IMG/VR virus record: IMGVR_UViG_3300048998_000119
Span: 13,214-77,213 of that record
Length of the DNA: 64,000 nt
Direction: 5' to 3' (one strand)
Origin: a virus
Lineage: Duplodnaviria > Heunggongvirae > Uroviricota > Caudoviricetes
The notes under the pieces were generated by a model. That model was not told the DNA's origin, did not search any database, and saw nothing but the letters and a program-made list of their open reading frames with translations. Below, one piece after another: positions 14,204 through 40,596 of the stretch. Made by a program: the position numbers and the translations under genes. Position 1 is the stretch's first letter, and each line of letters opens with the position of its first letter.

Positions 14204-16156
14204 TCAGAACTGAATCACATAAGGACGACCGTCGACCTTGACCTTCACCTGCTCAGGCTTGGTGCTGGAGAAGCCCACACCCGACAGCTGTTCTTTCTGA
14301 TGCGGAGCACGCGACCGTGAGCCGAGAACCTCAAACACCTTGCGATGCTCGTTGAGTTCGGCCTTCAGGTACTCATTGTGAATACCCCGAACAGACTCAG
14401 GATTCTCCATTTCCTTCACAAAGAAGAAGACGTGGAGATTGCCCGTGCCTTCACCCCAGTAGTTCGGGCTGAGTGTGATCGCGTCGAGCTCCCGGTATTG
14501 GCCCAACTGGACGCCCCACTTGTCGACCTTGCGTCCACCCACCTGGACCGAGTTGTCGCCCGCTCCGTATTGGACGATCTGTCCGTTTGTAACTCGGAAG
14601 CTGGCGGTCGCGACCACCTCGTTGTGGCGCACCTCACGCGGGCAGTTGAACTTCAGCAGCGTGTCACCACACTCGACTTCAACCTCGAAGCCCACGTCTT
14701 TAACTTCACGGTGTGTGAAGTTGTGAACGCCCACACGATACTCACCGTCCAGCAACTTGCTGAAGTAGACGTTCTCCACGGCGTCTCGACGATCGCCGCT
14801 GACGTTCATGTCCACGTCGAGCTGACCGTATGAACCGATCGGCTTCTTCGCGGCGAAGTGGATCTTGATACCCTTGCTGTCCCAGACATGAAGATCAAGA
14901 TCGTCTGTGTTGAACCAGCTCAGACTGATGCGAAGCGGAGCGTCCACCTTGCCGCCCGCCTGCTTGACACGTTCTTTCACGCTGTCCGTGACGTCGCCGT
15001 CGTAGGACCAGGAGAAAGGATTGTCCCACTTGAAGATAGACGAGCCGGTGGTGAGCGTCATGAAGTTGCCCGGATGCTCGATCAGCAACTCCACCTTCTT
15101 CGCGCCAGGAAGAATGGTCTTCAGGAAGCTGTCGGCGTCGATCGTCTCACCGTCCTTCGAAGGCTTCTTCTTGTTGAACGCCACGCCCGCCATGAGCAAC
15201 TCCAGCGGGGAGTTGATGCGATCGTTGTTGGCGACGAACAACAGATGCTCCATTGGAATGTCGTCAATTGTGGCCATGCGACGCGTGACGTCCATACCCA
15301 TTTCCTCGATCTTGGCGAGCGCCGCGTCGATCTGCTTCTGCGACACCAACGACTTGGGCTTCTTGTAGTTGTTTGGATCCAACATACGACCGAACGCCTC
15401 AGCCGCCTCGTCTGGGTCACGCTTCATGGACTTGTTGTTCGGATCGTTCCATTCAGCTAATTCAATCAAGAACGTGCCGATGCTGACATTGCGTAGACCC
15501 GCCACACGTGTCTTCAAGTGCTTCCACACGAACGTGTCGGATCCATCATACTGACGCGCCAGATCCAAGAAGCCGGACACCTGAGCACGGAACTCGGCGC
15601 CGCGATACAGACGGTTCTCGTCGATCATTTCCAGTGCCTGTTGTAAGACAGCCGGAGTGAACTGGTCCAGACCGCGCTTGAACACACCGAACAGATTGTT
15701 CAGGTCGCCGCGTTCCTTCGATGGCTGAGACACCCTGTGCTTGACGACACGACCGAAGAAGTGATCGTACTTGATCGTGGGATCCTCCTTGTCGCGATTG
15801 GGGCCGGAACCGTAGCTCGCCTGATCGGTACGATACACGCCGGTGATTGGAGCCTGGCGCACTAGATCGCGAAGAGCGGTCGCCACGATGTTGTACGGCA
15901 TAGGCAAGTTCACGTCGTCCCACACGGTGTCGCCGTCGATTGTGCGCAGACGCCCGATATTGCGGATGAAGTTCTTGCAGCAGTTGCAGTTGTGCCAGGT
16001 GTTGACACGGTGGATCGGATCGGTGCCGATCGGGAAGGCGCTGAGATACTTATCCCAGATGTCGTCCACGTCAACCGTGTAGAGTTCCTGTGAGGACATC
16101 GCGTCCCACTTTGAGGCGACGCTCTTCGAGAAAGTTTGAAATGCTGTCATGGTCAC
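14204..16156 (-). CDS. large hypothetical protein (650 aa) with N-terminal Cys cluster HNCNCC
   Basis: long uninterrupted ORF; no recognisable family. Confidence 0.55.
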   Translation of the reverse strand: MTMTAFQTFSKSVASKWDAMSSQELYTVDVDDIWDKYLSAFPIGTDPIHRVNTWHNCNCCKNFIRNIGRLRTIDGDTVWDDVNLPMPYNIVATALRDLVRQAPITGVYRTDQASYGSGPNRDKEDPTIKYDHFFGRVVKHRVSQPSKERGDLNNLFGVFKRGLDQFTPAVLQQALEMIDENRLYRGAEFRAQVSGFLDLARQYDGSDTFVWKHLKTRVAGLRNVSIGTFLIELAEWNDPNNKSMKRDPDEAAEAFGRMLDPNNYKKPKSLVSQKQIDAALAKIEEMGMDVTRRMATIDDIPMEHLLFVANNDRINSPLELLMAGVAFNKKKPSKDGETIDADSFLKTILPGAKKVELLIEHPGNFMTLTTGSSIFKWDNPFSWSYDGDVTDSVKERVKQAGGKVDAPLRISLSWFNTDDLDLHVWDSKGIKIHFAAKKPIGSYGQLDVDMNVSGDRRDAVENVYFSKLLDGEYRVGVHNFTHREVKDVGFEVEVECGDTLLKFNCPREVRHNEVVATASFRVTNGQIVQYGAGDNSVQVGGRKVDKWGVQLGQYRELDAITLSPNYWGEGTGNLHVFFFVKEMENPESVRGIHNEYLKAELNEHRKVFEVLGSRSRAPHQKEQLSGVGFSSTKPEQVKVKVDGRPYVIQF

Positions 16157-18682: not shown

Positions 18683-19113
18683 GAGAACACCTCTTTAAGA
18701 AGCGCGCCGATGTTGTCGTGGATGTAAATCCAGAAGATAACTCCCGCGATCTCGTGAGGTATGCCCCACTCACCCAAGTTTTCCGCGTCGAGTCGTTCTT
18801 CGACGAGCTTGTCCATCTTCTTGTCGAGCAGGACCGCCTGCGTGTGGGTCAGCTGCGGAAAAAGCTCCCGCATGCGTGTGACACGTTTCTCGATTCCCGC
18901 GACGTCCGGATCAATACTTGGCATCGCGAATCCTCCGAGCAATCTCTCTGAACGACTCACGGTCATCGTTGCGGCTGGCGAGGTAATCAGCTTCTTCTTG
19001 ACTAATCTTGAAAAAGTCACGCACGGCTTGAGGCGGCATCGCGTAATTGTGTTTGTTATACATATAACGTCGTTCTTGATCGGCGTGCCAACCTTCAGGT
19101 TGGAAAAGGTCAC
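18679..19113 (-). CDS. hypothetical protein (144 aa; possibly MazG-like helical fold)
   Basis: ORF track; weak EIAGVIFWIYIHDNIG similarity only. Confidence 0.3.
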   Translation of the reverse strand: MTFSNLKVGTPIKNDVICITNTITRCRLKPCVTFSRLVKKKLITSPAATMTVSRSERLLGGFAMPSIDPDVAGIEKRVTRMRELFPQLTHTQAVLLDKKMDKLVEERLDAENLGEWGIPHEIAGVIFWIYIHDNIGALLKEVFS

Positions 19114-19237
19114 AAGCCACCCCCAGGCAACAGAAGCCCTCTTCTGTCCTCAGCGAGCCTTGTGCCTGCTTGTACTCACCTGACTCAAGGGCGCTCGCCC
19201 ACGCCTCTCTCCTCTCGGAGAAGCTTCCATTCAGCAT
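18911..19237 (-). CDS. ALRSGEYKQ/CCLGV family small protein, paralog C (start trimmed)
   Basis: WASALESGEYKQ, FCCLGVACDL, FREIARRIR. Confidence 0.45.
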   Translation of the reverse strand: MLNGSFSERREAWASALESGEYKQAQGSLRTEEGFCCLGVACDLFQPEGWHADQERRYMYNKHNYAMPPQAVRDFFKISQEEADYLASRNDDRESFREIARRIRDAKY

Positions 19238-19685
19238 AGACGTTGATAAATTCTTTTCTACGACTTTGGGCGTAGCGGACGGTCGCGCCGGTGCCGCTGT
19301 GAGAGTAGCCATTAAAGTTGACCAGAAGCTTTTGAGAGTCATCGACTATAGCCTTATTTCTGAGGAGTGTAAGTTTGTCGTCGTACTTCTCGCCAAACAC
19401 ACGTTCGACTTCGGCGTGGTCGCGCAGAGACGCCCAACGGAACCTGCTCTGCTTCGGCCAAGCATTTGCCTGATCCTCGTAGGGAATGTAGCAACCATAA
19501 GGTATACCCAACTCCCAGCAAGCTGTGGCGCACGCCTGATCCCAGCCCAACGCCATTCCTTGAATAACCGCCTTGGGTGTAATTTCTTTCAGATGAATCT
19601 TAGCCACCTCCACCAGAAGCTGGAAGGCCTCTTCCGAGTAACCTCCCAGATCCGGTGGACGATGACCGCTTACGCCCAGAATCAT
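19185..19685 (-). CDS. YpsA-like SLOG domain protein (DUF1273-like)
   Basis: N-terminus MILGVSGHRPPDLGGY...QGMALGWDQACATACWELGIPYGCYIPYE resembles YpsA/DUF1273. Confidence 0.5.
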   Translation of the reverse strand: MILGVSGHRPPDLGGYSEEAFQLLVEVAKIHLKEITPKAVIQGMALGWDQACATACWELGIPYGCYIPYEDQANAWPKQSRFRWASLRDHAEVERVFGEKYDDKLTLLRNKAIVDDSQKLLVNFNGYSHSGTGATVRYAQSRRKEFINVYAEWKLLREERGVGERP

Positions 19686-20077
19686 ACCGGAAAAGGATTC
19701 TTATCTGGATAGACAACACCGTTTACGCCAGTATGCCAGAAGAGCGCTTCGCAGTAAGCCTCTCTCGCCATAACCAGTGTCCAGCAGCCTCCCGGCGAAA
19801 CGTCCACAATCTTGTGCATCGCGCGGGCGTCACGATAAAGCGACTCACCTTCACGATTGATCTGCACATCTTCAATATACAAACCGGATCGATCTGAACG
19901 CGCCCATCGCTCTTCGACGTACCAGCCTTTCAGAATATGACTGTGGAAGTCCCACGGATGACTATGCGGGTCGGAGTGGTCACGATCCTTCAGATGATGT
20001 ATAACCGGAGAGAAGGGCCAAGGTCCCTCCCCCAAGTGATACTTCGTGAAGTGTGGACCCATTTCTTCAACACGCAT
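19682..20077 (-). CDS. His-rich hypothetical protein (131 aa)
   Basis: HSDPHSHPWDFHSHIL cluster suggests metal binding. Confidence 0.4.
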   Translation of the reverse strand: MRVEEMGPHFTKYHLGEGPWPFSPVIHHLKDRDHSDPHSHPWDFHSHILKGWYVEERWARSDRSGLYIEDVQINREGESLYRDARAMHKIVDVSPGGCWTLVMAREAYCEALFWHTGVNGVVYPDKNPFPV

Positions 20078-21716: not shown

Positions 21717-22340
21717 TTACTTCTTCTTCGGGGTCGCGACCTTCACGGGTGCGGCTTCCTCGACTTCAGGTTCGGCCTCAGTGGTCTGAGCGGCAGCCTT
21801 GGCGGCAGCCTTCTCAGCCTGATAGCGCGCGAGACCTTCCTTGGCCTTCGGGTTCAGAGCGCGCTTGACGCGACCTGCCTCGTAAGCTTCCAGAATCGCG
21901 GTCTTGTTCTCGATCACGAAGTCGGCGACGTCCGCGTTGCCGTCTGCGAGCGTGGTGAGCTCGGTCTTGACGACAGCCGTCTTCTCGTCGGCGTCCATAC
22001 GCGTGACCTTCGGCCAGCGGAAGGTATCCAGGATCGCGGCGGCGTTGTCGGCCACGAACTTGAACTTCGGCTCGTTGGCGTCAGAGATAGCCTTGAGCGC
22101 CTTTTCGAGCTGGTTCTTCTCGCTCTTGCTCACACGCTTGATCGTACCTGCCTCGAAAGCATCCTCGATCTGCGTGCGGTTGTCGATGAGCCACGTCACC
22201 AGTTCCGCGTTGTCGTCGATGAGACCATTCAGCGCCTCGGTGATAACCGGACGACGCATGTGGTCCATAGCCTCAGCCTTCGAGTCGAAGGTCTGGCCAT
22301 CGGGAGTGCGGTATACTTGGTTCAGTTCCATGTCAGCCAT
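21717..22340 (-). CDS. hypothetical protein with internal duplication, Ala/Lys-rich tail
   Basis: two copies of LIDNRTQIEDAFEAGTIKR / VIENKTAILEAYEAGRVKR. Confidence 0.45.
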   Translation of the reverse strand: MADMELNQVYRTPDGQTFDSKAEAMDHMRRPVITEALNGLIDDNAELVTWLIDNRTQIEDAFEAGTIKRVSKSEKNQLEKALKAISDANEPKFKFVADNAAAILDTFRWPKVTRMDADEKTAVVKTELTTLADGNADVADFVIENKTAILEAYEAGRVKRALNPKAKEGLARYQAEKAAAKAAAQTTEAEPEVEEAAPVKVATPKKK

Positions 22341-22355
22341 GTGATTTCTCTCTTG

Positions 22356-22388
22356 ATAAAAAGCTCGTCTCCACCCGGAGACGGCGTG
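22356..22388 (-). terminator. putative rho-independent terminator (CGTCTCC-gggt-GGAGACG + TTTTTAT on minus strand)
   Basis: read on minus strand directly upstream of gene 21717..22340. Confidence 0.45.
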
Positions 22389-22559
22389 ATTGGGTCGTTG
22401 GAAATAAGGGTTAATAAAACGGGGTCCGGTCTGAGTGCTCGCGTCGTGGTCGCCGTTACAAAGTTCCCGTTTGGGCCAACGCGAGTGCGTCGGGCGGGGC
22501 GGCGGAGGACGCGAGTGACCGGGGTCCGGGCGGCACACCGGACAGCATAATCATATCAG

Positions 22560-22823
22560 TTACTTCCGATCATGTTGCGGACGAGGACGTGACTTTTCGA
22601 TCACCTTGATCACGTCGTCGACCACGTGATTGTCCTTGGGCCATACACCCGACCAGACCTTGAACGCCTTGGTCCGATCGCCGTTTTCGTAGTTCAGATG
22701 ACCCTTGTCGTAGACGGCCACACGATTTTCTTTGATGACGAAGCAGCGAGTGGCTCCCAGATCCTGCGTGAGAAACTTGACGGGGCCGTTGTAACGATCG
22801 CTGAAACCGATGTACTTGTTCAC
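22560..22823 (-). CDS. hypothetical protein (87 aa)
   Basis: ORF track. Confidence 0.4.
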   Translation of the reverse strand: MNKYIGFSDRYNGPVKFLTQDLGATRCFVIKENRVAVYDKGHLNYENGDRTKAFKVWSGVWPKDNHVVDDVIKVIEKSRPRPQHDRK

Positions 22824-23008
22824 TTTACTTCACCTTCAATGAGATCGAGTTCACTGGTCTTCTTTTCGTAGTAGTGGCCCTCCCGAGTGAACTTCTCGAG
22901 TTTGCCCTTTTCGTTCTTGGCCGTCAGAGGAAATTTGCCGTGTAAGTTATGAAGCACGATCGTGAACAGCTTGCCTTTGCCGTTCTTGTAAGACTTGTTG
23001 GGAAGAAA
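22820..23008 (-). CDS. hypothetical basic protein (~62 aa, start at MFLPN)
   Basis: ORF track, trimmed. Confidence 0.3.
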   Translation of the reverse strand, partial: FLPNKSYKNGKGKLFTIVLHNLHGKFPLTAKNEKGKLEKFTREGHYYEKKTSELDLIEGEVK

Positions 23009-23171
23009 CATAACTAACCTCAGAGGTCGAGTACACCCTGCGCCCATCGCGGTGTAATTTGTTTGTCGATAATCTTGTCGTAGTATTCTTGCATCTTCTC
23101 CGGATCAATGTGTTCCACATCGAACTGATCTCTGTATGCACGTCGCAGAGCTGAACGTTGTTGGTCTCGCG

Positions 23172-23468
23172 TCACAGCTTCTCGTCGATCCAATCAGCGA
23201 TTTCGGCGAAAGTTTTACCTTGAGCGTCATTCATATTGACGCAGGTGTTGACGGCCGAACCTTCTAATTCAGCCGGACCGTAAACATCAGTGTGAACATA
23301 CGTGCCGCTTCTGTCGGTGAACACACTTGGTTCCACAATTTCGGCCAAAACACCGAGACAGCAATGACTGACCGGAGAGTCGGTGATGTTTCGCAGCATG
23401 AACTTCGTTTGTGTGTACTCACCTGAACGGAGTGCGGCCGTCCACTTTTCTTTGATTTCTTTGTTCAT
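23172..23468 (-). CDS. ALRSGEYTQ/CCLGVL family small protein, paralog D
   Basis: WTAALRSGEYTQ, HCCLGVLAEIVEP, FAEIADWIDE. Confidence 0.5.
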   Translation of the reverse strand: MNKEIKEKWTAALRSGEYTQTKFMLRNITDSPVSHCCLGVLAEIVEPSVFTDRSGTYVHTDVYGPAELEGSAVNTCVNMNDAQGKTFAEIADWIDEKL

Positions 23469-23471
23469 TTC

Positions 23472-24443
23472 TTATTCCTCGAAGATGGTGTCGATGAGGA
23501 CGGCGAGATAGGTGCTGTCGATGCGCTGATTGGCGTCTCGATTCTGCAGAGCAGTGATGAGCTGATGCATGTACGCCACATCGACGCCCATTAGCTGTTC
23601 CTTCAACTGCACCGGATCCTCGAAATTGATGTCGCTGACTTGCCGCATCATCTTGAGAACCTGACCGGCGCTGATCCGCCAACCACGTTTGATGAACTTG
23701 CGCATGCGTAGAACAGAAGCCAGAGGATACAGACTACCGCTGTACACTAGTGTCTTGGACAGCAAACACTCCATCATTTCCGGAGTGATGATGACCTTGT
23801 CCGACGCATAGTCGTAGACGCCGGTGCAGTGCAGATAGTCGTAGTTCTTGTGGATCTGATCTGCTTCACCGTAGAACCGAATAATGATCTGCGTGCGATC
23901 CGTCAGCGTGATGGCGTTGTCCGTCATGAACACTGGCTTGTACTTGTGAGTCGGCGTCTTAACTTCATCCACCAAATCGATGATCTGATCCATGTCGTCC
24001 GACGAGGCCGAGAGTGAAGACACGAAGTCTTCCGTGGCTTGATCCGGTTGGGCCTCGAAGTACTTATACGCTTCCTGATCCACACCGGCCGTGCCCGCCG
24101 ACTTCATATAAATCAGCACACGATCTTCACTCTCGCCCGCCAGATTCAAGCGAGATTCAACTTTGACGGCGGGTTTGTACTCCACGGTGTCGGTGCCCGT
24201 CTTGGCCTGATTGAACTTCTGAACGTAGTACTCAGCCACCCGCTTAGTCATTTCGAGCGACTTGAAGTAGACGTCGTAGTCGTTGACCTTCTCGCCGAGC
24301 ATCATACTGCACACAGCGCCTCCCGTCACGAGCACCTCGTCCTTGATGTCGTGAGCCAGCGTGGGATCGTCGATAGACGCGATGAACTTGTTGAGCTTGT
24401 CGCGAATGAGCTTGCGAATAGTCCTGCGATGAAAACCTGACAT
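23472..24443 (-). CDS. tRNA nucleotidyltransferase / poly(A) polymerase family (PolyA_pol head domain) protein
   Basis: LVTGGAVCSMMLGEKVNDYDVYF matches the hhGGAVRDxLLGxxxxDhD head; FMTDNAITL resembles the RDFTINA motif. Confidence 0.6.
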   Translation of the reverse strand: MSGFHRRTIRKLIRDKLNKFIASIDDPTLAHDIKDEVLVTGGAVCSMMLGEKVNDYDVYFKSLEMTKRVAEYYVQKFNQAKTGTDTVEYKPAVKVESRLNLAGESEDRVLIYMKSAGTAGVDQEAYKYFEAQPDQATEDFVSSLSASSDDMDQIIDLVDEVKTPTHKYKPVFMTDNAITLTDRTQIIIRFYGEADQIHKNYDYLHCTGVYDYASDKVIITPEMMECLLSKTLVYSGSLYPLASVLRMRKFIKRGWRISAGQVLKMMRQVSDINFEDPVQLKEQLMGVDVAYMHQLITALQNRDANQRIDSTYLAVLIDTIFEE

Positions 24444-24457
24444 TTAGTTATCCTAAC

Positions 24458-25018
24458 TTAGTTGTTGACGATGCGGAATTCATCAGCGTAAACGGCAAAA
24501 CCGCGAGTGGCGAAAGATGACTGAAGCGACTCCAGCAGCTTGGCCTGCTTCGCCTCGGTCAACTCAGGATCGAGCGCGAGCGCGTTGATTTTCTGAATGC
24601 GCTCCTCGACCTGCGCGGCTTCCCTCTTGAGTCGTTCGGCGTGCTCCTCGTTGTTCTTGAGCAGCTTGGCGAGATTTAGCAGCACCGAGTTGTGCTCCAC
24701 AACCGTGGCTTCGTTCTGGATACCGCTGAGGGTCATTTTCTGAGTCGTCATTTTAAAGCTCCAATTGAGTTCGCGAATGAAATTCATCGCTTCGTTGTAA
24801 TCACTATCTGAGAAAGGCACTGTGCCCATCCAGTATAACTCTGCTTTGAAGAGTCCTTTTGTGGCGTTGACGTAGACTTCACCATCTTTCCAAACGCCGT
24901 CCCAATGACCGTTGATCACCCAGAAATTGATGCCGCCGTCCGGGTTCATTCCCTTGTTGCGGCACCAAAGGCTCAGCCGACCATCTTGGCCGAGCGCGAA
25001 CTGGTCAGGTAGGTACAT
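24458..25018 (-). CDS. hypothetical protein (186 aa), coiled-coil C-terminus
   Basis: ORF track; overlaps rSAM gene stop. Confidence 0.45.
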   Translation of the reverse strand: MYLPDQFALGQDGRLSLWCRNKGMNPDGGINFWVINGHWDGVWKDGEVYVNATKGLFKAELYWMGTVPFSDSDYNEAMNFIRELNWSFKMTTQKMTLSGIQNEATVVEHNSVLLNLAKLLKNNEEHAERLKREAAQVEERIQKINALALDPELTEAKQAKLLESLQSSFATRGFAVYADEFRIVNN

Positions 25019-25997
25019 GCACCTGTTCCAGACCGTGGCCTACACTGGGTTTCGCCTTGTCCGGGTTCTCCTTCATCCAGTCTTGAACGAACCACAGCTG
25101 GCCACATCCGCCCCCGATTGTATCCTGACCGGCCGGATCGAAGACACGCGTGTCGTATCCACGTTCGGCGAGTTTGTTGGCGAAATCGGTGGCCAGATCA
25201 CGCTGATGTTGATTACGGGCGGGCAGACCGTCGTTACGCTCACAGATCACAGAAATGGTGGCGTTAAAGGTGAAGTGATCATACAGATCAACAATCCGAT
25301 CTGCGTCTTCATCCGAGCTATTGCCGTCGTGGGCACAGTAGTTGAAGAACGGCTTGCGTCCGTCGCCGAGATTGTCCTTCCAGTCTTCGCCCTTCAGCGA
25401 CATTTCTTCCAGCGTCCATTTGGCCTTGAAGGGAACGAGCTTATCTCGCGCCTCATCGGTGCTCTCATGGACGGAGAACTGAAGGCCGATCGCGGGAATG
25501 TCACGACTGACCTGGATGAGCTCTTCCCACTGACCGTCGCTGATGCGTGGACCGCTGGTGCTGATGAGCAGACGTGCGTGTGGATACAGACGATAAAGCG
25601 CACGCATCGCAGGAATGAGCGCTTTCAGATTGAGAAGCGGCTCGCCCATGCTCATGAACATGATCTGCAATTTCTGCATTTGCTTTGCTCGACGCACGGC
25701 GGCAAAACCCAAAGAAGCTTCATCATTGGGAGTATCCGCCTCGCAAGAGGCAAGGATTGAATGACGAACCTGATCAACGATCTCTTCAGCCGTCAGGTTA
25801 CGAACGAAGTAGTCGCCCGCTCCGCAGAACCTGCAGCCGACCGGACACCCGCTCTGCGTCGAGCAGCAAATGACCGTTCGTTCTTCGTACGTCGGATACT
25901 TGTAGAGCACCGATTCGACCACCGCGTCCTTCTTGGTGAAGACGAACTTGGCGACGTTCTCGGCTGCGTCGTCGACGCGCTTGATGTTATCCCACAT
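25005..25997 (-). CDS. radical SAM enzyme of the RlmN/Cfr methyltransferase family, lacking the N-terminal accessory domain
   Basis: CCSTQSGCPVGCRFCGAG (resolving Cys + Cx3Cx2C), MSMGEPLLN, LISTSGP, C-terminal GGGCGQLW matching the RlmN mCys355 region. Confidence 0.65.
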   Translation of the reverse strand: MWDNIKRVDDAAENVAKFVFTKKDAVVESVLYKYPTYEERTVICCSTQSGCPVGCRFCGAGDYFVRNLTAEEIVDQVRHSILASCEADTPNDEASLGFAAVRRAKQMQKLQIMFMSMGEPLLNLKALIPAMRALYRLYPHARLLISTSGPRISDGQWEELIQVSRDIPAIGLQFSVHESTDEARDKLVPFKAKWTLEEMSLKGEDWKDNLGDGRKPFFNYCAHDGNSSDEDADRIVDLYDHFTFNATISVICERNDGLPARNQHQRDLATDFANKLAERGYDTRVFDPAGQDTIGGGCGQLWFVQDWMKENPDKAKPSVGHGLEQVHVPT

Positions 25998-26394
25998 TGG
26001 AATATCCTTTTTTAGTCATTGCGGTTTCGACACGCTCAGACCAGTCTTTGATCTTCAACAGCATCTTGGGATTGTCTCTGCAATAGAACATCAAATTCAT
26101 GACGCCTTTCCAGAGCAGATCTGTGGACGGAACAGAGCGTTCGAGTAACCAGTCACGCCACGCCTCACACTTCTTGTGCACAACGATGGCGAGTGGCTCA
26201 GTCCGCACTTGCGCGCGAGACCGTGCCCTTACACTCGCTCGGTAACCTTCGTCATTGGCATATCTGACACGTTGACGCTTACTGTCGCACTCCTTACAGT
26301 ATGAGCCTACATCCATTACGTTAGTTCGGCTCTTGTAGAATTTATCCAGCGGTAAGTTATGGCCGCAATCGATACACCGTTTTGTTTGCGGCAT
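25987..26394 (-). CDS. zinc-ribbon protein (135 aa)
   Basis: CIDCGHN...CKECDS, KKCEAW. Confidence 0.4.
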   Translation of the reverse strand: MPQTKRCIDCGHNLPLDKFYKSRTNVMDVGSYCKECDSKRQRVRYANDEGYRASVRARSRAQVRTEPLAIVVHKKCEAWRDWLLERSVPSTDLLWKGVMNLMFYCRDNPKMLLKIKDWSERVETAMTKKGYSNVG

Positions 26395-26395
26395 A

Positions 26396-26602
26396 CTACT
26401 TGCTAAACTCTTCTAATGCGTGAGTTATGGCTGAAAAGCCAAACACACAAATCATTACAAGAGAGACACCTAGCACGTCGGGCGTCAACCCTTTATTGCA
26501 CGCAGAGAGTGGTTCACCCGCCATCTGAAACATGACGAGGGTGCAGGCGACGGCCATAACTAGACATGCCCACAGTGAAATAAAGCGCATGAGAGGAATC
26601 AT
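26396..26602 (-). CDS. small membrane protein (68 aa)
   Basis: two TM helices. Confidence 0.4.
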   Translation of the reverse strand: MIPLMRFISLWACLVMAVACTLVMFQMAGEPLSACNKGLTPDVLGVSLVMICVFGFSAITHALEEFSK

Positions 26603-26681
26603 AAAATTTCCTTATTGCCCGCTGCGGGTTTTGGACACAACCTTTTTACGCTGAATCTGTATCTTCAGCGGAGTGCGCTTC

Positions 26682-27581
26682 TTAAAGGTCGATTTTGTCT
26701 CGCCAACCGATGGCTCGGGCGTGACGTGGATCATCCTTGACACCGTGCGCGAAGATACGGAACTTAAGAAGCTTGCCTTTGTAGAAATCCCGTGCATTCC
26801 AAATCTCCTTCAATTCGTCGTGGGTGAATTTACCCGGCGCGACGTTGATGATCTTTCCGTTCCAAAGAACCTTGAACTTACCCAGCATGCCCACGCCGAC
26901 TTTGTTGTCTTTGTGGGAGGATCGCTTGGCGTAACCGCGTTCGTCGGTTGTCTTCTCATTGTTATTCTGCATACGCTCGACGAAGTCAACCACTTCACCT
27001 TCGGCGTCCAGAAAACGCTTCAGCTTGTAGATGATACCTTCGTTGATTGTGGCGCGGCCCTCTTTGTAACGGCCCCACGGCGTACGCAGCATCACACCTT
27101 CGTAACCCAGATCAAGCTTCTCCTGCTCAAACTTTAGCACCTCTTCGATATTCTCGAGAGGTGTTTGTTCAACCAGTTTATACATGTCTGGATCAAGGCC
27201 GTTATGCAGCTTCGCCAGAGCGTCCAGCCGCTTCTCGTAGAACTCTTCGCGGAGCTCCGGCAGAGGATAGTCGAACAGATTGAAGGTGATGCTGCCTGGT
27301 TTATCCGCCGACATAACATGAGAGTTGGTGCGATTGTAGACGTTAAAGTCCGTCACACAACCTTCTATGAATTCACCGTCTAGCCACGGCTCGTGGTTGA
27401 ATTCTTCCTGAACCTGTTCGGAGGGAAGCTCTTTCCACGTACGAGACATGACACGATTGTCTGGACCGATTACACCGCGAATGCCATCGAGTTTGGGTGA
27501 GCCAAGCAAAGGAAACTGTAGCTTCTCCCAGTATTTGGGATAACCTGTGGGTACTTCGCTCGGCGCTAGAAGGACTCTCAT
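26682..27581 (-). CDS. ATP-dependent DNA ligase (minimal, Chlorella-virus/T7-like size)
   Basis: motif I SPKLDGIRG, motif IV EGVMLR, motif V LKR...; 299 aa. Confidence 0.75.
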   Translation of the reverse strand: MRVLLAPSEVPTGYPKYWEKLQFPLLGSPKLDGIRGVIGPDNRVMSRTWKELPSEQVQEEFNHEPWLDGEFIEGCVTDFNVYNRTNSHVMSADKPGSITFNLFDYPLPELREEFYEKRLDALAKLHNGLDPDMYKLVEQTPLENIEEVLKFEQEKLDLGYEGVMLRTPWGRYKEGRATINEGIIYKLKRFLDAEGEVVDFVERMQNNNEKTTDERGYAKRSSHKDNKVGVGMLGKFKVLWNGKIINVAPGKFTHDELKEIWNARDFYKGKLLKFRIFAHGVKDDPRHARAIGWRDKIDL

Positions 27582-27925
27582 CCCTGCACAACGTCCCCGT
27601 CGACGAGACTCAGACGTTCGTCGCCCATCAGCGAACGAAACTCAGCCATGTAGGTCTGGTCTGAAGCGCCTGAACCCATGAAATGGAACAGAATTCGTTC
27701 GTCGGCGATTGGCTCATCCAGCATGGCCGTTTCGCTGACACCCATGAACACAGGCAACAGCATACGCCGGAAGCGTTCGATCACCTGCAGTGCATCCTGA
27801 GCGGTGGGCGAGCCGGACATGGCGCGGAGCTTCTCGGTGAGTTCCTGCATGTTGATGTTCTTGCCGCGAAGCTCAACCAGACAAGCTTCGTCGGCGTAAA
27901 GCTTGCCGTTCTTTTCATAGGTCAT
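27578..27925 (-). CDS. hypothetical protein (115 aa)
   Basis: ORF track. Confidence 0.4.
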   Translation of the reverse strand: MTYEKNGKLYADEACLVELRGKNINMQELTEKLRAMSGSPTAQDALQVIERFRRMLLPVFMGVSETAMLDEPIADERILFHFMGSGASDQTYMAEFRSLMGDERLSLVDGDVVQG

Positions 27926-28080
27926 TCTTGTAATCCTCAGTGAGAAAGTAAAGGTATTCGGCGTAAGTTATCTGCAATAGACCACGACGTGTGGGACGAA
28001 AGAAATAGCCGCCTGCTCGGACGACTCCGCGTTTTCGGCAGATGGTGGAGTATTGACGCAACCGTCGTTCTTCTTCACGT

Positions 28081-28533
28081 TTAGCCATTGAGTACTTCGT
28101 CGATGAGATCGGCCTCCTCCGCATTGGCCACAGCCTTTCGATTACCTTCCACTGTGTGCTTGAGTCGATGCAGAGCGGCGTAGTCCTGGAAAATACGCTT
28201 GTGCTGACGCAGCAAGTTCTCCATCTGCTCGGCTCGACGAATATAAGCGAAGGCGCGTTGATACCAGTTGTTGCGGAACGGATTAGTTTGGTTACCGCTT
28301 TCGGCTTTCTTGCCAAAGTGTGTCAGCATGTCTTTGTGCGACAGTGGCCGCTCTTCTTGTGGAGCTTCGGCGCGCAGCTGGTCTTGATGATAAGGGATCT
28401 GTTCATCCTTCTTCGCACCGAGATAGCTGTAGTAGCCTCGACGTGCGTCGTCGTCGTGCCAGTGAGCGGGAACGCTCTTGCCGTTGTAGGCGTGATTCCA
28501 GCCGCGCATGTAGTTAAACTTGCTCACAATCAA
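28081..28533 (-). CDS. hypothetical protein (150 aa; start codon uncertain)
   Basis: preferred over overlapping frame 27915..28316 on composition. Confidence 0.35.
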   Translation of the reverse strand: MIVSKFNYMRGWNHAYNGKSVPAHWHDDDARRGYYSYLGAKKDEQIPYHQDQLRAEAPQEERPLSHKDMLTHFGKKAESGNQTNPFRNNWYQRAFAYIRRAEQMENLLRQHKRIFQDYAALHRLKHTVEGNRKAVANAEEADLIDEVLNG

Positions 28534-28825
28534 AGTCCTTTCATTTTTGCTTCACGAAGAATGTGTTCCAATGCGACCAACGGTATGGAAATGTGGTTAC
28601 CGTTGTTCTGCGTAAACTCAATCACTTGATCTCCGAAAGAATACTGATCTGGATCAATATCTCCGGTGAATTGCGTGTTGTGTAATTTGAGTTTTACGTG
28701 GGTGATCATTCACCAGAAGCTTCATCGTAGTCCACTGCCTTGCCCATCCAATACTGATATGAGTCATACATGCTCACAGCGTAGAAAATGAGACCGAGTC
28801 TAAAACAAAGCCATGATTTGAATTT

Positions 28826-28872
28826 ATTCACGGTGATCTCCAATTTTTGAGGAGGCTCATCGGCCTCCTCAG
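28826..28872 (-). promoter_or_regulatory. stem-loop + A-run + RBS module, copy A
   Basis: minus: GAGGAGGCC-gatga-GCCTCCTC AAAAATTGGAGATCACC GTG. Confidence 0.4.
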
Positions 28873-28873
28873 A

Positions 28874-29065
28874 TTATCCTTGTAGTTCAAGTGGACCCAC
28901 GTATTCGTTCCACTCGGTGCTGGTCAGTTCCAGAAAGTAATTTGGATCTTTGTATTCCTCGTTGACCAACACTGTACGCGACATCACAATCGCGATTTTG
29001 GGTATCATCGTCAAATTCTCTCCGCCGATGAAATGCATCATCCTGACAGGATAATAAGACAACAT
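28874..29065 (-). CDS. hypothetical protein (~63 aa) overlapping RNR 3' end
   Basis: ATG with GGAG RBS inside the last 40 nt of the RNR gene. Confidence 0.3.
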   Translation of the reverse strand: MLSYYPVRMMHFIGGENLTMIPKIAIVMSRTVLVNEEYKDPNYFLELTSTEWNEYVGPLELQG

Positions 29066-29102
29066 ATCTCCTCGTTTTGAGAAAACTTCTTTCAGCGGCA
29101 GA

Positions 29103-31007
29103 TCACTTGATGGGGCATGCTCCACTTGCACATTCATCGTCCCCTTCGAACTCCGCCTCTGAGACGGAGGTGATAAGCCGAGTTTCTGCCACAAGTTCGT
29201 CATACTGTTCTTTCGTGATTTCCTCCAACGGTGCTTGCTTGAAGCCGTGATCGGAATGCAGCAGGAAGGAGAGTGACTTATGGCTGTGCCGGTAATACTT
29301 CTCCAAGTACTCACGGATCGCCGGAAGCTCTTCCTTCTTGTAGTAAATGGTGCATGAGACAGAATTGTCCGACCACTCAGTCTGAAGACGCTTGATCCAG
29401 TTCAACTGATCAAAGGCCGTGACGTCTGCGGCCACGGTGGTGCCTTCAGGATAAGCGAACGGGAAGGTCACGACCACAGTGTTGTAGTCGTCTGAGCCGT
29501 CGAAGTTCTGCTGATACTCGACCGGATAGCCAGCCTCACGACAGATCGCCACGAGGCGATGATCTGCGGCGATGCGAATGCGACGATACATATGACGAGC
29601 ATATGCGGGATGGACACCCGGAGTCACACCCGGCAGAAGAGACAACGTGCCGCTCGGCTTGACCGTGGTGAGCTTGATCGAGATTGGAACGCCCTTGCGC
29701 TTACTATACGTCGCGTCGTACTCACGCAGGAACAGATAGCCGTCGTTCATCCAGGACAGCTGCTCTTCGCTGCTCTGGAGAATACCCGTCAGACCAATGC
29801 CCATACGCATGTTGCGGTGGACGATTGCTTCGGTGCCGGGCTGATGGCTCTTCATCATCAACGAGTGCTTGTTGATGCGGTAACTCAGTTGCAGAATATC
29901 GAGGAACTCTTCCTCCGATGTAACATTCGGAAGGAATACCTCACTCAGACAGCAGGTTTCGAAATTCGCAAGCGACTGTTCTGCGCAAGGATTGTACCCC
30001 TCGACGTCCGGGTCTGGGTAATCAAAGTCACCCAGGCGACCGATCTGACGAGATAGACTGAGATTAATGAGTCCGTAAGGCTCGCCTTTGCCTTCGTAAC
30101 CGTCCCAGAAGTAGGGATGCAGATCGGCAATGTCGTCGCACGCGACCGAGTTGTTCGACATAGCGCGCCACTTTGGAATATTGCCCATATCCCAACGCTT
30201 CGCAAGCAGGTACTCAACGTCATCTGGATCTCCAATGGCCAACTGAGCCGACCGGCGTACGTTACCGGCCACAATGATGAAGCCGATGATGTTCATAATG
30301 TCAAGGGCGTCGATCGGACGGATCTTACGACCCGCACGCTTCATCAGAATCTCGCTGATCTGCTGAATGCCCCAACACAGTTCTTCCGGCCCGCTGGCCA
30401 CACCGCCGAAGCCGTTGATCGGCTTACCCTTGCCGCGAATTACCTGCGTGCTGTAAGTGAAACTCCCCTTGGACGATTGGTCTGAGAGGAACGCCGACTT
30501 GAGGGTTTTTCCGAGAAGCTTGACCCAACCCTCACGGCTATCCGGCACAATGAAGTCTGCGCCACCTTCGTCAGTACGAACAGGAGCTTTGAACCACGGC
30601 CGGACTTCGGGTAGTTTGTCCACATGTTTCTTCTGAATGTTATACCCAACACCACTGCCGAGAGCCAGCATATCCATGCACCAGCAAAAAGGAGTGATGG
30701 GATGGTCCACCACGGTGAATGCACAGTTCTGGAGTGAAGCCAGTCCCAGACGATCCACAGTGCCAGTGCCGAGTTGCCAAAGAAATCGGCCAGCAACAGA
30801 CATTTTGAGATCGAGCATGTAACCTCGGGCGCGGTCTTCTTCATCCTTGGTGAACCCCACATGTAGTTGTTCGTCCGCCGCCTTGAGTACGCGGTCGATC
30901 GTGTCGGGAAATTCTTCCTGACGACCGTTGTCCATCTTACGCGAATAGGTACGCTTGTACGTAAGATAGCCTACGCTAGACCACGGCGTTTGTCCATTAT
31001 TCATCAA
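29103..31007 (-). CDS. nrdJ: ribonucleotide reductase, class II (adenosylcobalamin-dependent, monomeric-type)
   Basis: active-site GYNPCAEQS, C-terminal redox pair ECASGAC, 634 aa. Confidence 0.7.
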   Translation of the reverse strand: MMNNGQTPWSSVGYLTYKRTYSRKMDNGRQEEFPDTIDRVLKAADEQLHVGFTKDEEDRARGYMLDLKMSVAGRFLWQLGTGTVDRLGLASLQNCAFTVVDHPITPFCWCMDMLALGSGVGYNIQKKHVDKLPEVRPWFKAPVRTDEGGADFIVPDSREGWVKLLGKTLKSAFLSDQSSKGSFTYSTQVIRGKGKPINGFGGVASGPEELCWGIQQISEILMKRAGRKIRPIDALDIMNIIGFIIVAGNVRRSAQLAIGDPDDVEYLLAKRWDMGNIPKWRAMSNNSVACDDIADLHPYFWDGYEGKGEPYGLINLSLSRQIGRLGDFDYPDPDVEGYNPCAEQSLANFETCCLSEVFLPNVTSEEEFLDILQLSYRINKHSLMMKSHQPGTEAIVHRNMRMGIGLTGILQSSEEQLSWMNDGYLFLREYDATYSKRKGVPISIKLTTVKPSGTLSLLPGVTPGVHPAYARHMYRRIRIAADHRLVAICREAGYPVEYQQNFDGSDDYNTVVVTFPFAYPEGTTVAADVTAFDQLNWIKRLQTEWSDNSVSCTIYYKKEELPAIREYLEKYYRHSHKSLSFLLHSDHGFKQAPLEEITKEQYDELVAETRLITSVSEAEFEGDDECASGACPIK

Positions 31008-38304: not shown

Positions 38305-40596
38305 CTAGACAAAGCAATATTCTGAATCCAGAACAGCCCTGATGTCCAACGTGCCGTAAACTATTTCCGACGCGTCACCCTGGATGTCCTTCATCAGATT
38401 TTGAAGTGGATCCGTCTGATACAGTTCCACAAACGTTTCTCGCACAATCCTGAACAAGTCAGGCATGTCGGCCAACAGACAACCGAAACTGTCGTGAATG
38501 GTCGTGACTGCAAACGGAGCCTTGTCCACAGTCATCGCGAGGTGAGCGGCGTCCAGAGAGTGAATACAGTTTGGACTTGCACCCGAAGCCTGCTTACCCT
38601 TTGAATGCTCAGTGTCTTCGATGAACGAAATGTTCAGCTGCAGCGTATTCTGATAGTAGCCGCTGAGCTTTCTCTCACCCAACGGAGGACCGTACTGGAT
38701 CCACCGCTTTTTGACTTTACCTTGGGTGTAGTGCTGGACGACCGGGAAGTTTGTTACGGGAACAGTCCAGCTCAAGAACCGCCCCTCCTCCTCAGCCTTA
38801 CGTCCGGCTTTCTCGAAGATCGACAGTAGCTGCATAGGCTTGGTGAGTGACAACTGAGCTGCCTCAAAGATGAGACGACCCATGTACGCACCCCACTTAT
38901 GTTCCATATACAGCAATAGTTCGATGCCGTGCTTCTTGGCGTCGTCTATCACCTGCTGTCCGAGTCCGTACGCGGTGCCGCCATACGGCAGTGTCATCAC
39001 ACCACGTTTCATCACCTTACGCCTGTCCTTGGCGCTGGTGAGTCTAGACCAGAAGACAGTAGAGGCGTCGTTGTTCAACTCCACATTGTCTTCTTTATAC
39101 GCTTTGATCTGTTCAACCAATTCCGCCCTACGGTCGCTGCTTGGTTCAGCCGCCGTGATTTGTTTCTTCAGTTCAATCAGATTGTCGATGAAGCGATTAA
39201 TCTCGTTCAGTCGCTCCTTGCTGAAGTCCGTCAGTCGGTCGACGATGATTCCCCAGACATAATCCGCCACAAAGCGATAGAGATCGCCCGGAAGCTCAAG
39301 CGGAACCAGATTCACGTGTGGCGCCGTGGTCTCGTCTCTGACCAACGCAGTCAGATGCTGTGAACCATTGTTAGAGCCGTCGATGAAACATTCCAGCGAA
39401 GATTCATAATCCGTTGGATCGCCGTGCTCAAGCGCTTTCCTCAACTCCAAACAAGCCGCCAAGAACTGCCACGGCTTATCTGCGTCCATCCACCCTTGAT
39501 TTACTTTAGGGGATTCGGCGTAAGATAAAATGATTTCAATGTTGTCTCGTGTCCAGGCTTCTCTGGCGTCGAGCGGGATTTTATCTGTCTTAAGACCATC
39601 GTCTCTGCCGGAGTTTCCGGCCCACGTAGAAGCGATGCTAATAAGTAGCCATCGGAATCCGGCCTCTCCGATAGACTTTGAATCGCTCCGGAGTAGGAGT
39701 CCGCGAGCGACGTCAGTGCCTTGTTCATGGAGATACGCTGTTGTGGGGTATTTGCGACCTCTAAAGTCATAATAATATAGATGATAAAACTCCTTGTCCA
39801 AGAAGCGTTTCGCCATACCGCTGATGGCTCGGGCTTCACGAAGTTTTGTTTGACGAGCCTGGGGGTTGCGTTGTTCCCAGATGTCGCTGAAGGCGTTTGT
39901 CTTGTTTCTCAACGCCCACAGCTGAAGTTCGTAAACCTCTTTGTTCACACGCCAACCGACTCGCTGCGCTTTGTTGATGCAGTTAAACAGAATCGGATGG
40001 GTGTCGGGCTGAACTGCGGCGAAGACTTCCTTGTTGCCGGTCTTGATCATGTAGTTGCCGGTCTCGTGCCTGGAGGCGATCCAAGGCGCGTACGCTGTTT
40101 CAGAAGGAAGCTTTTCTATGCGTTCATTAGGGATACTTTCCCAGAGAGCGATGATGCCCTCTTCGTTGTTGATCTGAATCATATATGCGTTGTGGTTCTT
40201 GTTACCTTGACCCAGCAACACCGTTAACAACTGCAGTTGTTCAAAGCTGAAGACGAAGAACGCGCCCACCTTAGCCGCCAAGGAAGAGTCGCGTTTGATC
40301 TTGTTTTTGTTCAGAATGTTGTGACCGATGGCGGCGATCACTTCTGTTAGATACACAGTCTTGTTCACACCCTTCTTCATACGGGTGTACAAGTACAAAG
40401 TAGTTATGGCTGCGTCGATACAACCCTCCAGGTCCACATCGCGCAGGAATATAAGAGGACTCTGCGGTGCGATCTCTCGCATAATGCGGTCATAGAGAAG
40501 TTGTTTCAGTTCTGATCTCATCCAAATAATATCCATGACAGAAGATCTAGACCGAAGTATAAGACTAGGAGTACGGCGACGACATACGAAGTGCAA
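38305..40596 (-). CDS. single-subunit DNA-dependent RNA polymerase (T7-like)
   Basis: motif A FIDGSNNGSQHLTAL, motif B RRKVMKRGVMTLPYGGTAYGLGQQV, motif C IHDSFGC; true start may be ATG at ~40536. Confidence 0.8.
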   Translation of the reverse strand: MHFVCRRRTPSLILRSRSSVMDIIWMRSELKQLLYDRIMREIAPQSPLIFLRDVDLEGCIDAAITTLYLYTRMKKGVNKTVYLTEVIAAIGHNILNKNKIKRDSSLAAKVGAFFVFSFEQLQLLTVLLGQGNKNHNAYMIQINNEEGIIALWESIPNERIEKLPSETAYAPWIASRHETGNYMIKTGNKEVFAAVQPDTHPILFNCINKAQRVGWRVNKEVYELQLWALRNKTNAFSDIWEQRNPQARQTKLREARAISGMAKRFLDKEFYHLYYYDFRGRKYPTTAYLHEQGTDVARGLLLRSDSKSIGEAGFRWLLISIASTWAGNSGRDDGLKTDKIPLDAREAWTRDNIEIILSYAESPKVNQGWMDADKPWQFLAACLELRKALEHGDPTDYESSLECFIDGSNNGSQHLTALVRDETTAPHVNLVPLELPGDLYRFVADYVWGIIVDRLTDFSKERLNEINRFIDNLIELKKQITAAEPSSDRRAELVEQIKAYKEDNVELNNDASTVFWSRLTSAKDRRKVMKRGVMTLPYGGTAYGLGQQVIDDAKKHGIELLLYMEHKWGAYMGRLIFEAAQLSLTKPMQLLSIFEKAGRKAEEEGRFLSWTVPVTNFPVVQHYTQGKVKKRWIQYGPPLGERKLSGYYQNTLQLNISFIEDTEHSKGKQASGASPNCIHSLDAAHLAMTVDKAPFAVTTIHDSFGCLLADMPDLFRIVRETFVELYQTDPLQNLMKDIQGDASEIVYGTLDIRAVLDSEYCFV

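Follow-up and report, generated by a model that had tools for sequence, protein, structure and literature searches.

How does a radical S-adenosylmethionine (SAM) enzyme of the RlmN/Cfr type select its substrate when the domain with which those enzymes dock onto RNA is missing? The question is raised by a gene in a 64,000-nucleotide stretch of tailed-phage DNA (positions 13,214 to 77,213 of IMG/VR record IMGVR_UViG_3300048998_000119; the whole stretch is referred to hereafter as the window, and its numbering is used throughout). The gene (25005..25997, minus strand) runs from an ATG start and encodes 330 residues, this being the longest possible reading of the frame and free of interruption. 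An AAGGA Shine–Dalgarno-like sequence lies 7 nt 5′ of the start, which overlaps the stop of the preceding 135-residue gene by 11 nt; the radical SAM stop in turn overlaps the start of the following 186-residue gene by 14 nt. A first-pass annotation, made from the sequence alone, had described the product as truncated. We find instead that this short form is full-length and conserved throughout a large phage family, such that the gene is best described as a complete, HhH2-less class A radical SAM methyl synthase gene of an RlmN/Cfr-like phage family.

In HMMER and MAFFT alignments, the motifs of the window protein fall in exactly the same columns as those of E. coli RlmN (C118, C125/C129/C132, GEPLLN and C355-GQL) and as the Cfr cysteines C105 and C338. 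The Pfam Radical_SAM model scores 41.4 bits against a cutoff of 29.5, and the best NCBIfam model is that of RlmN (TIGR00048; 96.5 bits, E = 1.5e-27, query residues 5–301 on profile positions 71–342 of 355), followed by the PRK14464 “RNA methyltransferase” model and the Cfr models, with other radical SAM families appearing only at E > 1e-3. The sole matches in a PDB sequence search are RlmN and Cfr (E = 1.7e-16, for RlmN 3rf9, to 3e-15). AlphaFold2, given 41 family sequences, produced a confident and compact model (predicted local distance difference test, pLDDT, 87.5; predicted template modeling score, pTM, 0.89), for which the best Foldseek matches are Cfr and structures of the RlmN class (E = 2.5e-18 to 4.9e-12), followed by viperins at E ~1e-5. 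Both features that define class A are present, namely a partial TIM-barrel radical SAM core with the CX3CX2C cluster motif (C51/C55/C58) and two mechanistic cysteines (C298 and C44, versus RlmN C355/C118 and Cfr C338/C105); the window protein also keeps all 36 columns in which the phage proteins, RlmN, Cfr and a PRK14464-like protein show no variation, including the mechanistic cysteine pair, the cluster cysteines and GEP. Assignment of the product as a homolog of the RlmN/Cfr class of radical SAM methyltransferases is, from these comparisons, well supported. The first-pass reading of the gene as RlmN/Cfr-like thereby stands: the C-terminal methyl-carrier cysteine is in place, the top hidden Markov model (HMM) match is RlmN with no other radical SAM subfamily matching better, and the predicted structure is closest to those of the RlmN class and Cfr.

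The protein should nonetheless bear neither of these names, since it falls far below the curated cutoffs for both RlmN (96.5 bits versus 290, 75.7 versus 633 and 69.2 versus 601; TIGR00048/PRK11194 equivalogs) and Cfr (80.4 bits versus 530, 72.9 versus 550 and 74.2 versus 468; NF000424/TIGR04432/PRK14453), and lacks the HhH2 domain. Its identity to RlmN and Cfr is 27–32% (27% to RlmN), whereas RlmN and Cfr share 37%. Membership of a viperin- or QueE-like subfamily and identity as a Cfr-type resistance gene were both considered and ruled out by the HMM and fold evidence.

The catalytic motifs quoted in the first-pass annotation are all present and align to the RlmN regions to which it had assigned them. 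The segment ICCSTQSGCPVGCRFC (25824..25868, minus strand) has the spacing C44-x6-C51-x3-C55-x2-C58, aligned as the resolving cysteine followed by the three [4Fe-4S] ligands; these cysteines are invariant in 41/41 aligned family members, and the motif recurs in 120/120 of the best of 5,654 homologs (matches from a protein search of 5.8 billion sequences, homolog statistics being taken from the best 120 listed). MSMGEPLLN (residues 115–123; 25629..25655, minus strand) corresponds to the SAM-binding GEP motif, compare MGMGEPLLN of RlmN, and G118, E119 and P120 are invariant across the 41-sequence family alignment. GGGCGQLW (residues 295–302; 25092..25115, minus strand) contains the putative methyl-carrier C298 (RlmN C355, Cfr C338), itself invariant in the family alignment, with CG[QSM]L found in 120/120 of the best homologs. 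Because the catalytic apparatus is conserved in full, methyl-synthase chemistry of the ping-pong type used by RlmN and Cfr may be regarded as well supported. By the class A mechanism of the RlmN/Cfr type (PMC13001441), one SAM would S-methylate C298 by SN2 attack, and a second SAM would be cleaved at the [4Fe-4S] cluster held by C51/C55/C58 to give a 5′-deoxyadenosyl radical; this radical would take a hydrogen from the S-methyl of C298, and the resulting methyl-Cys radical would add to C2 or C8 of adenine, giving a covalent adduct that C44 would resolve. Three further (near-)invariant cysteines are seen in the close family, on the active-site face of the barrel: C221 (FFNYCAH, end of β5), C252 (SVICER, after β6) and C45; in distant relatives C221 is partly kept and C252 is not kept.

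The departure from RlmN and Cfr lies at the N-terminus. Residue M1 of the window protein is preceded in the alignment by residue 72 of RlmN and residue 61 of Cfr, leaving absent ~72 residues that constitute the HhH2 RlmN_N domain. The corresponding Pfam model (PF21016) has no match in the window protein or in 12/12 other family members tested, whereas the positive controls are recovered (E. coli RlmN residues 18–77 at 110 bits, Cfr at 24.6 bits); a hidden RlmN_N domain was also sought, and none found, in the N-terminal extensions of four relatives (P0122, P0123, P0126 and P0193), and the upstream 135-residue protein likewise has no match to this model. The 11-nt overlap between the start codon and the preceding gene leaves no space upstream for an N-domain or for a remnant of one. 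The first-pass annotation was therefore right that an N-terminal domain is absent but overestimated its size (roughly 100 residues). The β-strand extension following HhH2 is kept: residues 1–45 (25863..25997, minus strand) align with the β′1–3 extension of RlmN and form strands at residues 4–10, 15–22 and 25–33 of the AlphaFold2 model. In RlmN and Cfr, this β′ extension links HhH2 to the core and lines the adenosine pocket (PMC13001441).

The short architecture is uniform. The best 120 of the 5,654 homologs span 309–337 residues (the other 119 at 64–76% BLASTP identity to the window protein), and 43–54 residues precede the first cysteine in 120/120 of them; the counts for RlmN and Cfr are 117 and 104. 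The 41 family sequences (66–80% identical to the window protein by alignment) share over 100 invariant positions, including the family-specific motifs FFNYCAH, SVICER, FDPAGQDTIGGGCGQLW and a C-terminal tail. A profile search of 1.84 billion cluster representatives returned 112 clusters at E ≤ 1e-30, mostly short, with canonical-length RlmN-like proteins appearing only below ~125 bits. The window protein has each of the features by which we define the clade: a length of ~310–335 residues, 43–54 residues before the first cysteine, FFNYC(A/V)H, F-D-P-A-G-Q-D, GGGCGQLW and a W-FVQxW...PS.G tail. With the same short form in 120/120 of the best homologs and no room upstream, the description as truncated does not hold.

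Nor does the adjacent 186-residue gene (24458..25018, minus strand), which the first-pass annotation had put forward as encoding a possible partner, behave as a conserved companion. Its product has no significant family matches (Pfam, NCBIfam, PHROGs, PADLOC), and tblastn detected no homolog in the fetched 6–10 kb flanks of the radical SAM gene in any of 116 other loci (84 + 32), among them that of the closest relative, whose radical SAM protein is 76% (BLASTP) to 80% (MAFFT) identical. This lack of conserved synteny led us to reject the dedicated-partner idea; a tblastn survey of every other flanking gene of the window across the 116 loci gave no co-occurrence with the radical SAM gene either.

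The family is nearly confined to phages. Thirteen isolated phages carry a member (46–60% identity to the window protein), the carriers including Stenotrophomonas phages ANB28 and BUCTxx99, Xanthomonas phage JGB6, Salmonella phage Arash, seven Vibrio phages (~129–139 kb) and Aeromonas phage Ahp1; a further 118 IMG/VR stretches encode a relative (80 loci kept, on contigs of up to 435 kb), whereas 185,579 species genomes yielded only 26 loci, many of these on contigs of metagenome-assembled genomes (MAGs). The one PHROGs match was weak and to a family of unknown function (phrog_24834, E = 2.3e-7), and the present family is thus missing from that collection. The labels given to members in existing records disagree (“RlmN”, “prohibitin family protein”, “hypothetical”, “radical SAM protein, partial”): the ANB28 orthologue is annotated RlmN, and those of JGB6 (OQ436456.1) and BUCTxx99 (OR529408.1; our loci L092 and H2) are labeled “prohibitin family protein” or “SPFH/Band 7/PHB domain protein” in GenBank, an evident misannotation. 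Three members (L107, L113 and L122) sit on contigs binned as archaeal (Methanobacterium, Woesearchaeota, “archaeon”) and Saccharibacteria/CPR MAGs; these look like large-phage contigs binned into MAGs, L107 having five tRNA genes and L113 a NAMPT gene 894 bp from the radical SAM gene.

To what, then, might this family transfer a methyl group? In the known complexes the HhH2 domain of Cfr/RlmN senses RNA shape while holding on to the backbone of H91 or of the acceptor stem; the U-turn and target adenosine are held by the core and C-terminal loop in both the Cfr–rRNA and RlmN–tRNA structures (PMC13001441). Mapping residues onto the Cfr–rRNA contacts, we observe that some are kept or similar (Cfr Y97 as Y34, R249 as R214, K250 as the mostly basic K215, and Y252 as the aromatic F217), the others being exchanged for invariant non-equivalent residues. 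Basic residues of RlmN/Cfr are replaced by invariant non-basic ones at R206/R184 (A141) and R344/R327 (F286), with further replacements in the same loop at K345/S328 (D287) and R347/F330 (A289), so that the basic loop R344-K345-T346-R347 of RlmN (R327-S328-Q-F330 of Cfr) corresponds to an invariant F-D-P-A in the family. This non-basic loop spans F286-D287-P288-A289-G290-Q291 (25125..25142, minus strand). Together, the absence of HhH2 and the exchange of the basic loop for F-D-P-A suggest that housekeeping methylation at A2503/A37 is probably not the function, and the target is probably not the L-shaped rRNA/tRNA of the housekeeping enzymes. The first-pass proposal of a different substrate is a reasonable one, strengthened by the present results. 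Bacterial hosts of these phages already encode RlmN.

Two further segments set the window protein apart. Residues 302–330 (25008..25094, minus strand) form the family-specific C-terminal tail, W-FVQxWMxxNPxxAKPSxGxG...H.P, in which W302, F303, V304, Q305, W307, P312, P317, S318, G320, G322, H327 and P329 are (near-)invariant among the 41 sequences; the model places a helix at residues 302–310, with pLDDT by block of 80 (301–310), 90 (311–320) and 69 (321–330). Residues ~84–106 (25680..25748, minus strand; alignment columns ~176–200) contain an α1/β2 loop insertion of ~17 residues, modeled at pLDDT 72–74, that is found only in the window protein among the members of our alignment A2. RlmN has its own extension in the same loop (PMC13001441).

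Genomic context offers a second line of evidence. When flanking open reading frames (ORFs) were clustered de novo, the only neighbor families to recur across clades were two of nicotinamide adenine dinucleotide (NAD+) salvage, NMNAT-Nudix (NatV-like) and NAMPT (NadV-like), one or other of which lies within ±3 ORFs in 23 of the 102 loci with an intact radical SAM ORF; NADAR was found in 7 loci. An NAD gene is directly adjacent to the radical SAM gene in 13/102 loci, on the same strand in 11 of the 13 and with gaps of −41 to 171 bp. The association is not the property of one lineage, in that NAD-linked loci of the IMG/VR-based subset (74 loci) fall into 16 of 48 clusters at 80% radical SAM identity, with pairwise identities of 55–76%, and show at least four gene orders (NMNAT-rSAM-NAMPT, NMNAT-NAMPT-rSAM, NAMPT-rSAM and rSAM-NAMPT, where rSAM is the radical SAM gene). 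Looked up independently in another database, four of seven close relatives were NAD-linked, one having NAD synthase upstream and NMNAT-Nudix immediately downstream. The most telling case is a distant relative (P0135), a radical SAM–Nudix fusion (Pfam NUDIX, E = 6.5e-17) whose Nudix domain resembles those of the NatV type (28% identity, E = 3e-9); its gene is followed after 1 bp by NAMPT and then by an NMNAT without its usual Nudix domain. A second fusion with a nucleotide hydrolase was seen among the profile-search relatives, P0223 (759 residues) joining an RlmN-like radical SAM domain to HD and HD_assoc domains (dGTPase-like triphosphohydrolase).

NAMPT/NadV and NMNAT-Nudix/NatV together constitute NARP2, present in ~1.1% of sequenced phages and described as a two-gene system with no mention of a radical SAM gene (Osterman et al, bioRxiv 10.1101/2024.02.11.579819). 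By our own count 4% of phage records contain a NAMPT/Namat-family match. The literature searched held no description of this phage radical SAM family, of its NAD linkage or of a radical SAM companion to NARP2. We conclude that the link between the family and NAD+ salvage is real but not obligatory.

On balance, we lean slightly toward an overall explanation in which the family is a large, phage-specific clade of class A methyl synthases with a non-housekeeping target and an accessory role tied to NAD+ salvage. The context suggests that the enzyme might act early in host takeover or counter-defense, coupled to phage NAD+ salvage of the NARP2 type. Our leading guess at the substrate, held tentatively, is an adenine nucleotide of the NAD+/ADP-ribose economy, NAD-derived immune signals included. 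A bolder form of this idea, which we think unlikely as it stands, would make the family the first class A radical SAM methyl synthases to act on a free adenine nucleotide, C-methylating (at C2 or C8) NAD+, ADP-ribose or a Thoeris gcADPR-type signal as an optional third component of NARP2 in counter-defense; the product would be either a cofactor analogue poorly handled by host NADases or an inactive or antagonistic analogue of the signal. Synthetic 8-substituted analogues of cyclic ADP-ribose (cADPR) are classical antagonists.

Several considerations weigh against this explanation. Every characterized class A methylase acts on RNA, and a non-RNA substrate would be without precedent; C2 versus C8 regiochemistry is, moreover, not callable from sequence. 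Radical SAM methyl synthases are slow, and slow turnover would favor low-copy RNAs or signaling nucleotides over bulk pools such as total NAD+. Around 77% of loci have no NAD genes nearby, implying that the enzyme works without them, and none turned up in the 64-kb window when 39 NAMPT, NMNAT-Nudix and NADAR queries were run by tblastn; the linkage could partly reflect the clustering of accessory genes in hyperplastic regions. The contact mapping has little power because RlmN and Cfr themselves differ at most contacts, the only noteworthy feature in it being the loss of the shared basic R206 and R344 and of the K345/R347 loop. The acidity of the family (isoelectric point, pI, 4.8–6.2 and net charge ~ −10, compared with near-neutral RlmN and Cfr cores of pI 6.2–6.5) is common in phage proteins, and the RlmN/Cfr cores are not basic either. 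Some neighborhoods would fit an RNA target: tRNA genes lie within 10 kb in 24/85 loci and within 1.3 kb in 7/85 (suggestive but not consistent as evidence of substrate), and genes for RNA ligase, Thg1 or phosphoesterase are found near the radical SAM gene in Arash and in a 570-kb jumbo-phage contig.

These observations bring forward the close second to the nucleotide guess, a tentative alternative in which the family is an RNA-directed accessory methylase modifying adenine in a compact structured RNA (A37-like tRNA positions or another hairpin), with the stem-loop read by the core and conserved C-terminal tail in place of HhH2 and the purpose being to tune translation or to shield tRNAs from anticodon nucleases. 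All characterized homologs are RNA adenine methylases, the β′ extension that cradles the target adenosine is kept, and the family has 14 (near-)invariant basic residues (R7, K17, R40, R56, R66, K125, R184, K191, K193, R214, R234, R254, R266 and R284), R214/K215 falling where Cfr has R249/K250, its contacts to H90 and the U-turn. To the tRNA, RNA ligase, Thg1 and phosphoesterase neighbors above may be added ANB28, where the radical SAM gene lies inside a tRNA gene cluster. Against an RNA target stand the loss across the whole clade of the domain that reads RNA tertiary shape, the change of R344-K345-T346-R347 to F-D-P-A in an acidic protein, and the presence of RlmN in the hosts; scans of the whole 64-kb window for tRNA genes and Rfam RNAs found nothing, hence no local clue to an RNA substrate or riboswitch. 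An RNA target also leaves unexplained why NAD salvage genes recur in operons with the radical SAM gene and why a domain fusion with one of them exists.

A DNA-modifying role, in which the enzyme C-methylates adenine in phage DNA or dATP and so evades restriction, seems improbable. The analogy would be with DpdA of phages, which is homologous to tRNA-guanine transglycosylase but has been repurposed to act on DNA. The window gene does lie in a replication module near ligase, EndoVII-like, ribonucleotide reductase and primase-helicase genes, a primase-helicase is nearby in 11/85 loci, and the distant relative fused to an HD/dGTPase-like domain would suit such a role; polymerases are reported to accept 2-substituted adenine nucleotides, 2-methyl among them (PMC12177693). 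The primase-helicase loci, however, belong mostly to one related group (L015–L023, L051 and L078), no other hypermodification genes recur nearby, and C-methyladenine in phage DNA was not found in the literature searched. A slow enzyme that spends two SAM per methyl is, besides, ill-suited to modification on a genome-wide scale.

Still less credible, and in our estimation very improbable, is an ordinary phage-borne orthologue of RlmN or Cfr methylating 23S rRNA A2503 (at C2 or C8) and/or tRNA A37, which in the Cfr case would make it an antibiotic-resistance gene. JGI and RAST automatically annotate members as 23S rRNA (adenine2503-C2)-methyltransferase or RlmN, and the best HMM and structure matches are to RlmN and Cfr, but the scores lie far under every curated cutoff with identity of merely 27–32%, the HhH2 anchor of H91/acceptor stem is absent, several RNA-contact residues common to both enzymes are replaced, and naked 23S rRNA during assembly, on which RlmN and Cfr act, is a poor target for a lytic phage. 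Finally, a functionless, 5′-truncated remnant of a captured host rlmN in decay, or a two-piece enzyme completed by the 186-residue protein, is effectively refuted, for although the window protein is shorter than RlmN and its 14-nt overlap with the 186-residue gene suggests translational coupling, more than 100 positions are invariant in 41 sequences, the short form is uniform in the 120 best homologs, the AlphaFold2 model is confident and compact, and the 186-residue protein has no RlmN_N match and is absent near the radical SAM gene in 116 related loci.

The immediate neighborhood of the gene in the window fits an accessory or counter-defense setting through the gene two positions downstream (23472..24443, minus strand), which encodes a 323-residue Gad2-like nucleotidyltransferase of the Gabija anti-defense family (Pfam PF26128 Gad2; phrog_4400, E = 3.8e-59), its translation containing the nucleotidyltransferase-like motif GGAVCSMMLGEKVNDYDVYF. 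Upstream, the 135-residue protein (25987..26394, minus strand) is a Zn-ribbon protein resembling the N-terminal region of EndoVII/HNH proteins (phrog_1035 endonuclease VII, E = 1.4e-10). PADLOC gave no matches for the radical SAM protein and three neighbors. In a scan for promoters and terminators, promoters gave nothing above shuffled expectation; the radical SAM gene lies in a long co-directional array. A protein identical to the radical SAM protein is found on a 77-kb contig. The window phage is a tailed phage and encodes single-subunit RNA polymerase, family-A DNA polymerase, primase-helicase, class II ribonucleotide reductase, ATP-dependent ligase, portal and tape-measure proteins; the 8 kb around the radical SAM gene (22000–30000) had no megablast match in 50,697 phage records, indicating a phage without a close sequenced relative.

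Further genes of the window were recorded in passing. A T7/N4-like single-subunit RNA polymerase (38305–40596), a class II (B12-type) ribonucleotide reductase (29103–31007) and a 650-residue protein with a very strong match to phrog_1735 (14204–16156; E = 3.6e-179) are all encoded on the minus strand, as are two paralogous genes of 98 (23172–23468) and 108 residues (18911–19237) of the DUF8296/phrog_18067 family, ~4 kb apart, a weak homolog of which lies 3.5 kb from the radical SAM gene in another locus (L059). Adjoining minus-strand genes encode a 166-residue weakly YpsA/SLOG-like protein (19185–19685; phrog_289 “GTP-binding domain”) and a 131-residue phrog_4786 “cysteine dioxygenase” protein (19682–20077); SLOG domains bind nucleotide-derived ligands, and the former might relate to the NAD/ADP-ribose theme. 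Elsewhere in the family, translation-related genes near the radical SAM gene comprise, in loci L005 (897–1130), L097 (5516–5914) and L093 (8818–9255), those for a ribosomal protein S21 homolog, a weakly ribosomal L12-like protein encoded directly upstream of it, and peptide deformylase.

Set beside known systems, the family is a phage-specific variant of the RlmN/Cfr class; the homology itself is routine and already auto-annotated, and it is the clade-wide loss of the docking domain, taken with the linkage to NAD salvage, that yields a concrete and testable hypothesis. RlmN (EC 2.1.1.192; TIGR00048; PDB 3RFA, 5HR7, 6FZ6), the dual-specificity 23S rRNA m2A2503/tRNA m2A37 radical SAM methyl synthase, shares with it the partial (βα)6 core and β′ extension, Cx6Cx3Cx2C, GEPLLN, CGQL and the 36 superfamily-invariant columns, whereas the phage family lacks HhH2 (~72 residues), is 27% identical, has the F-D-P-A loop, is acidic, phage-restricted and neighbored by NAD salvage genes, and ends in a conserved non-basic tail where RlmN has a basic C-terminal helix. 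With Cfr (NF000424, TIGR04432; PDB 9P0P), the 23S rRNA m8A2503 methyl synthase of PhLOPSA resistance, the predicted class A chemistry is common (C105/C338 as C44/C298), as are Y97, a contact of the A2503 ribose (invariant Y34), and R249/K250 (R214/K215); the phage family is without HhH2, W101, S103, S151/S153, R184, R327/S328 and the elongated basic α5/β6 loop, and Cfr is without the conserved C-terminal tail. We see no evidence in our analysis that marks the family as a resistance gene, yet its members are currently misannotated and might be mistaken in viromes for Cfr-like resistance genes. Viperin-like enzymes (PDB 6Q2P, 9DFW) have the radical SAM core and offer a precedent for free nucleoside triphosphate chemistry in virus–host conflict, but possess no methyl-carrier/resolving cysteine pair, dehydrate CTP rather than methylate, and match less well (Foldseek E ~1e-5, template modeling (TM) score 0.47–0.51, versus 0.66 for the RlmN/Cfr class).

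The comparison with NARP2 is one of partial overlap: in about one-fifth of loci, family members are embedded in or flank NARP2-type gene pairs, and one relative is fused to a NatV-type Nudix, whereas most NARP2 phages (e.g. KVP40) are not among the tblastn matches of the radical SAM family, and the window phage has the radical SAM gene without NARP2 genes in the 64 kb examined. NAD-depleting defenses such as Thoeris, DSR, SIR2-HerA and SEFIR are opposed by phage NAD+ reconstitution (Osterman et al, bioRxiv 10.1101/2024.02.11.579819), and the operonic association and fusion with NAD+ salvage genes suggest that the family may be an unrecognized player in this conflict. Several isolated phages carry the gene, which opens the substrate hypothesis to direct experimental test. 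RlmN and Cfr are the only characterized class A radical SAM methylases, both docking onto L-shaped RNA via HhH2; a populous, strongly conserved and phage-restricted branch that dispenses with HhH2 yet retains the full two-cysteine machinery implies a third specificity for class A chemistry.

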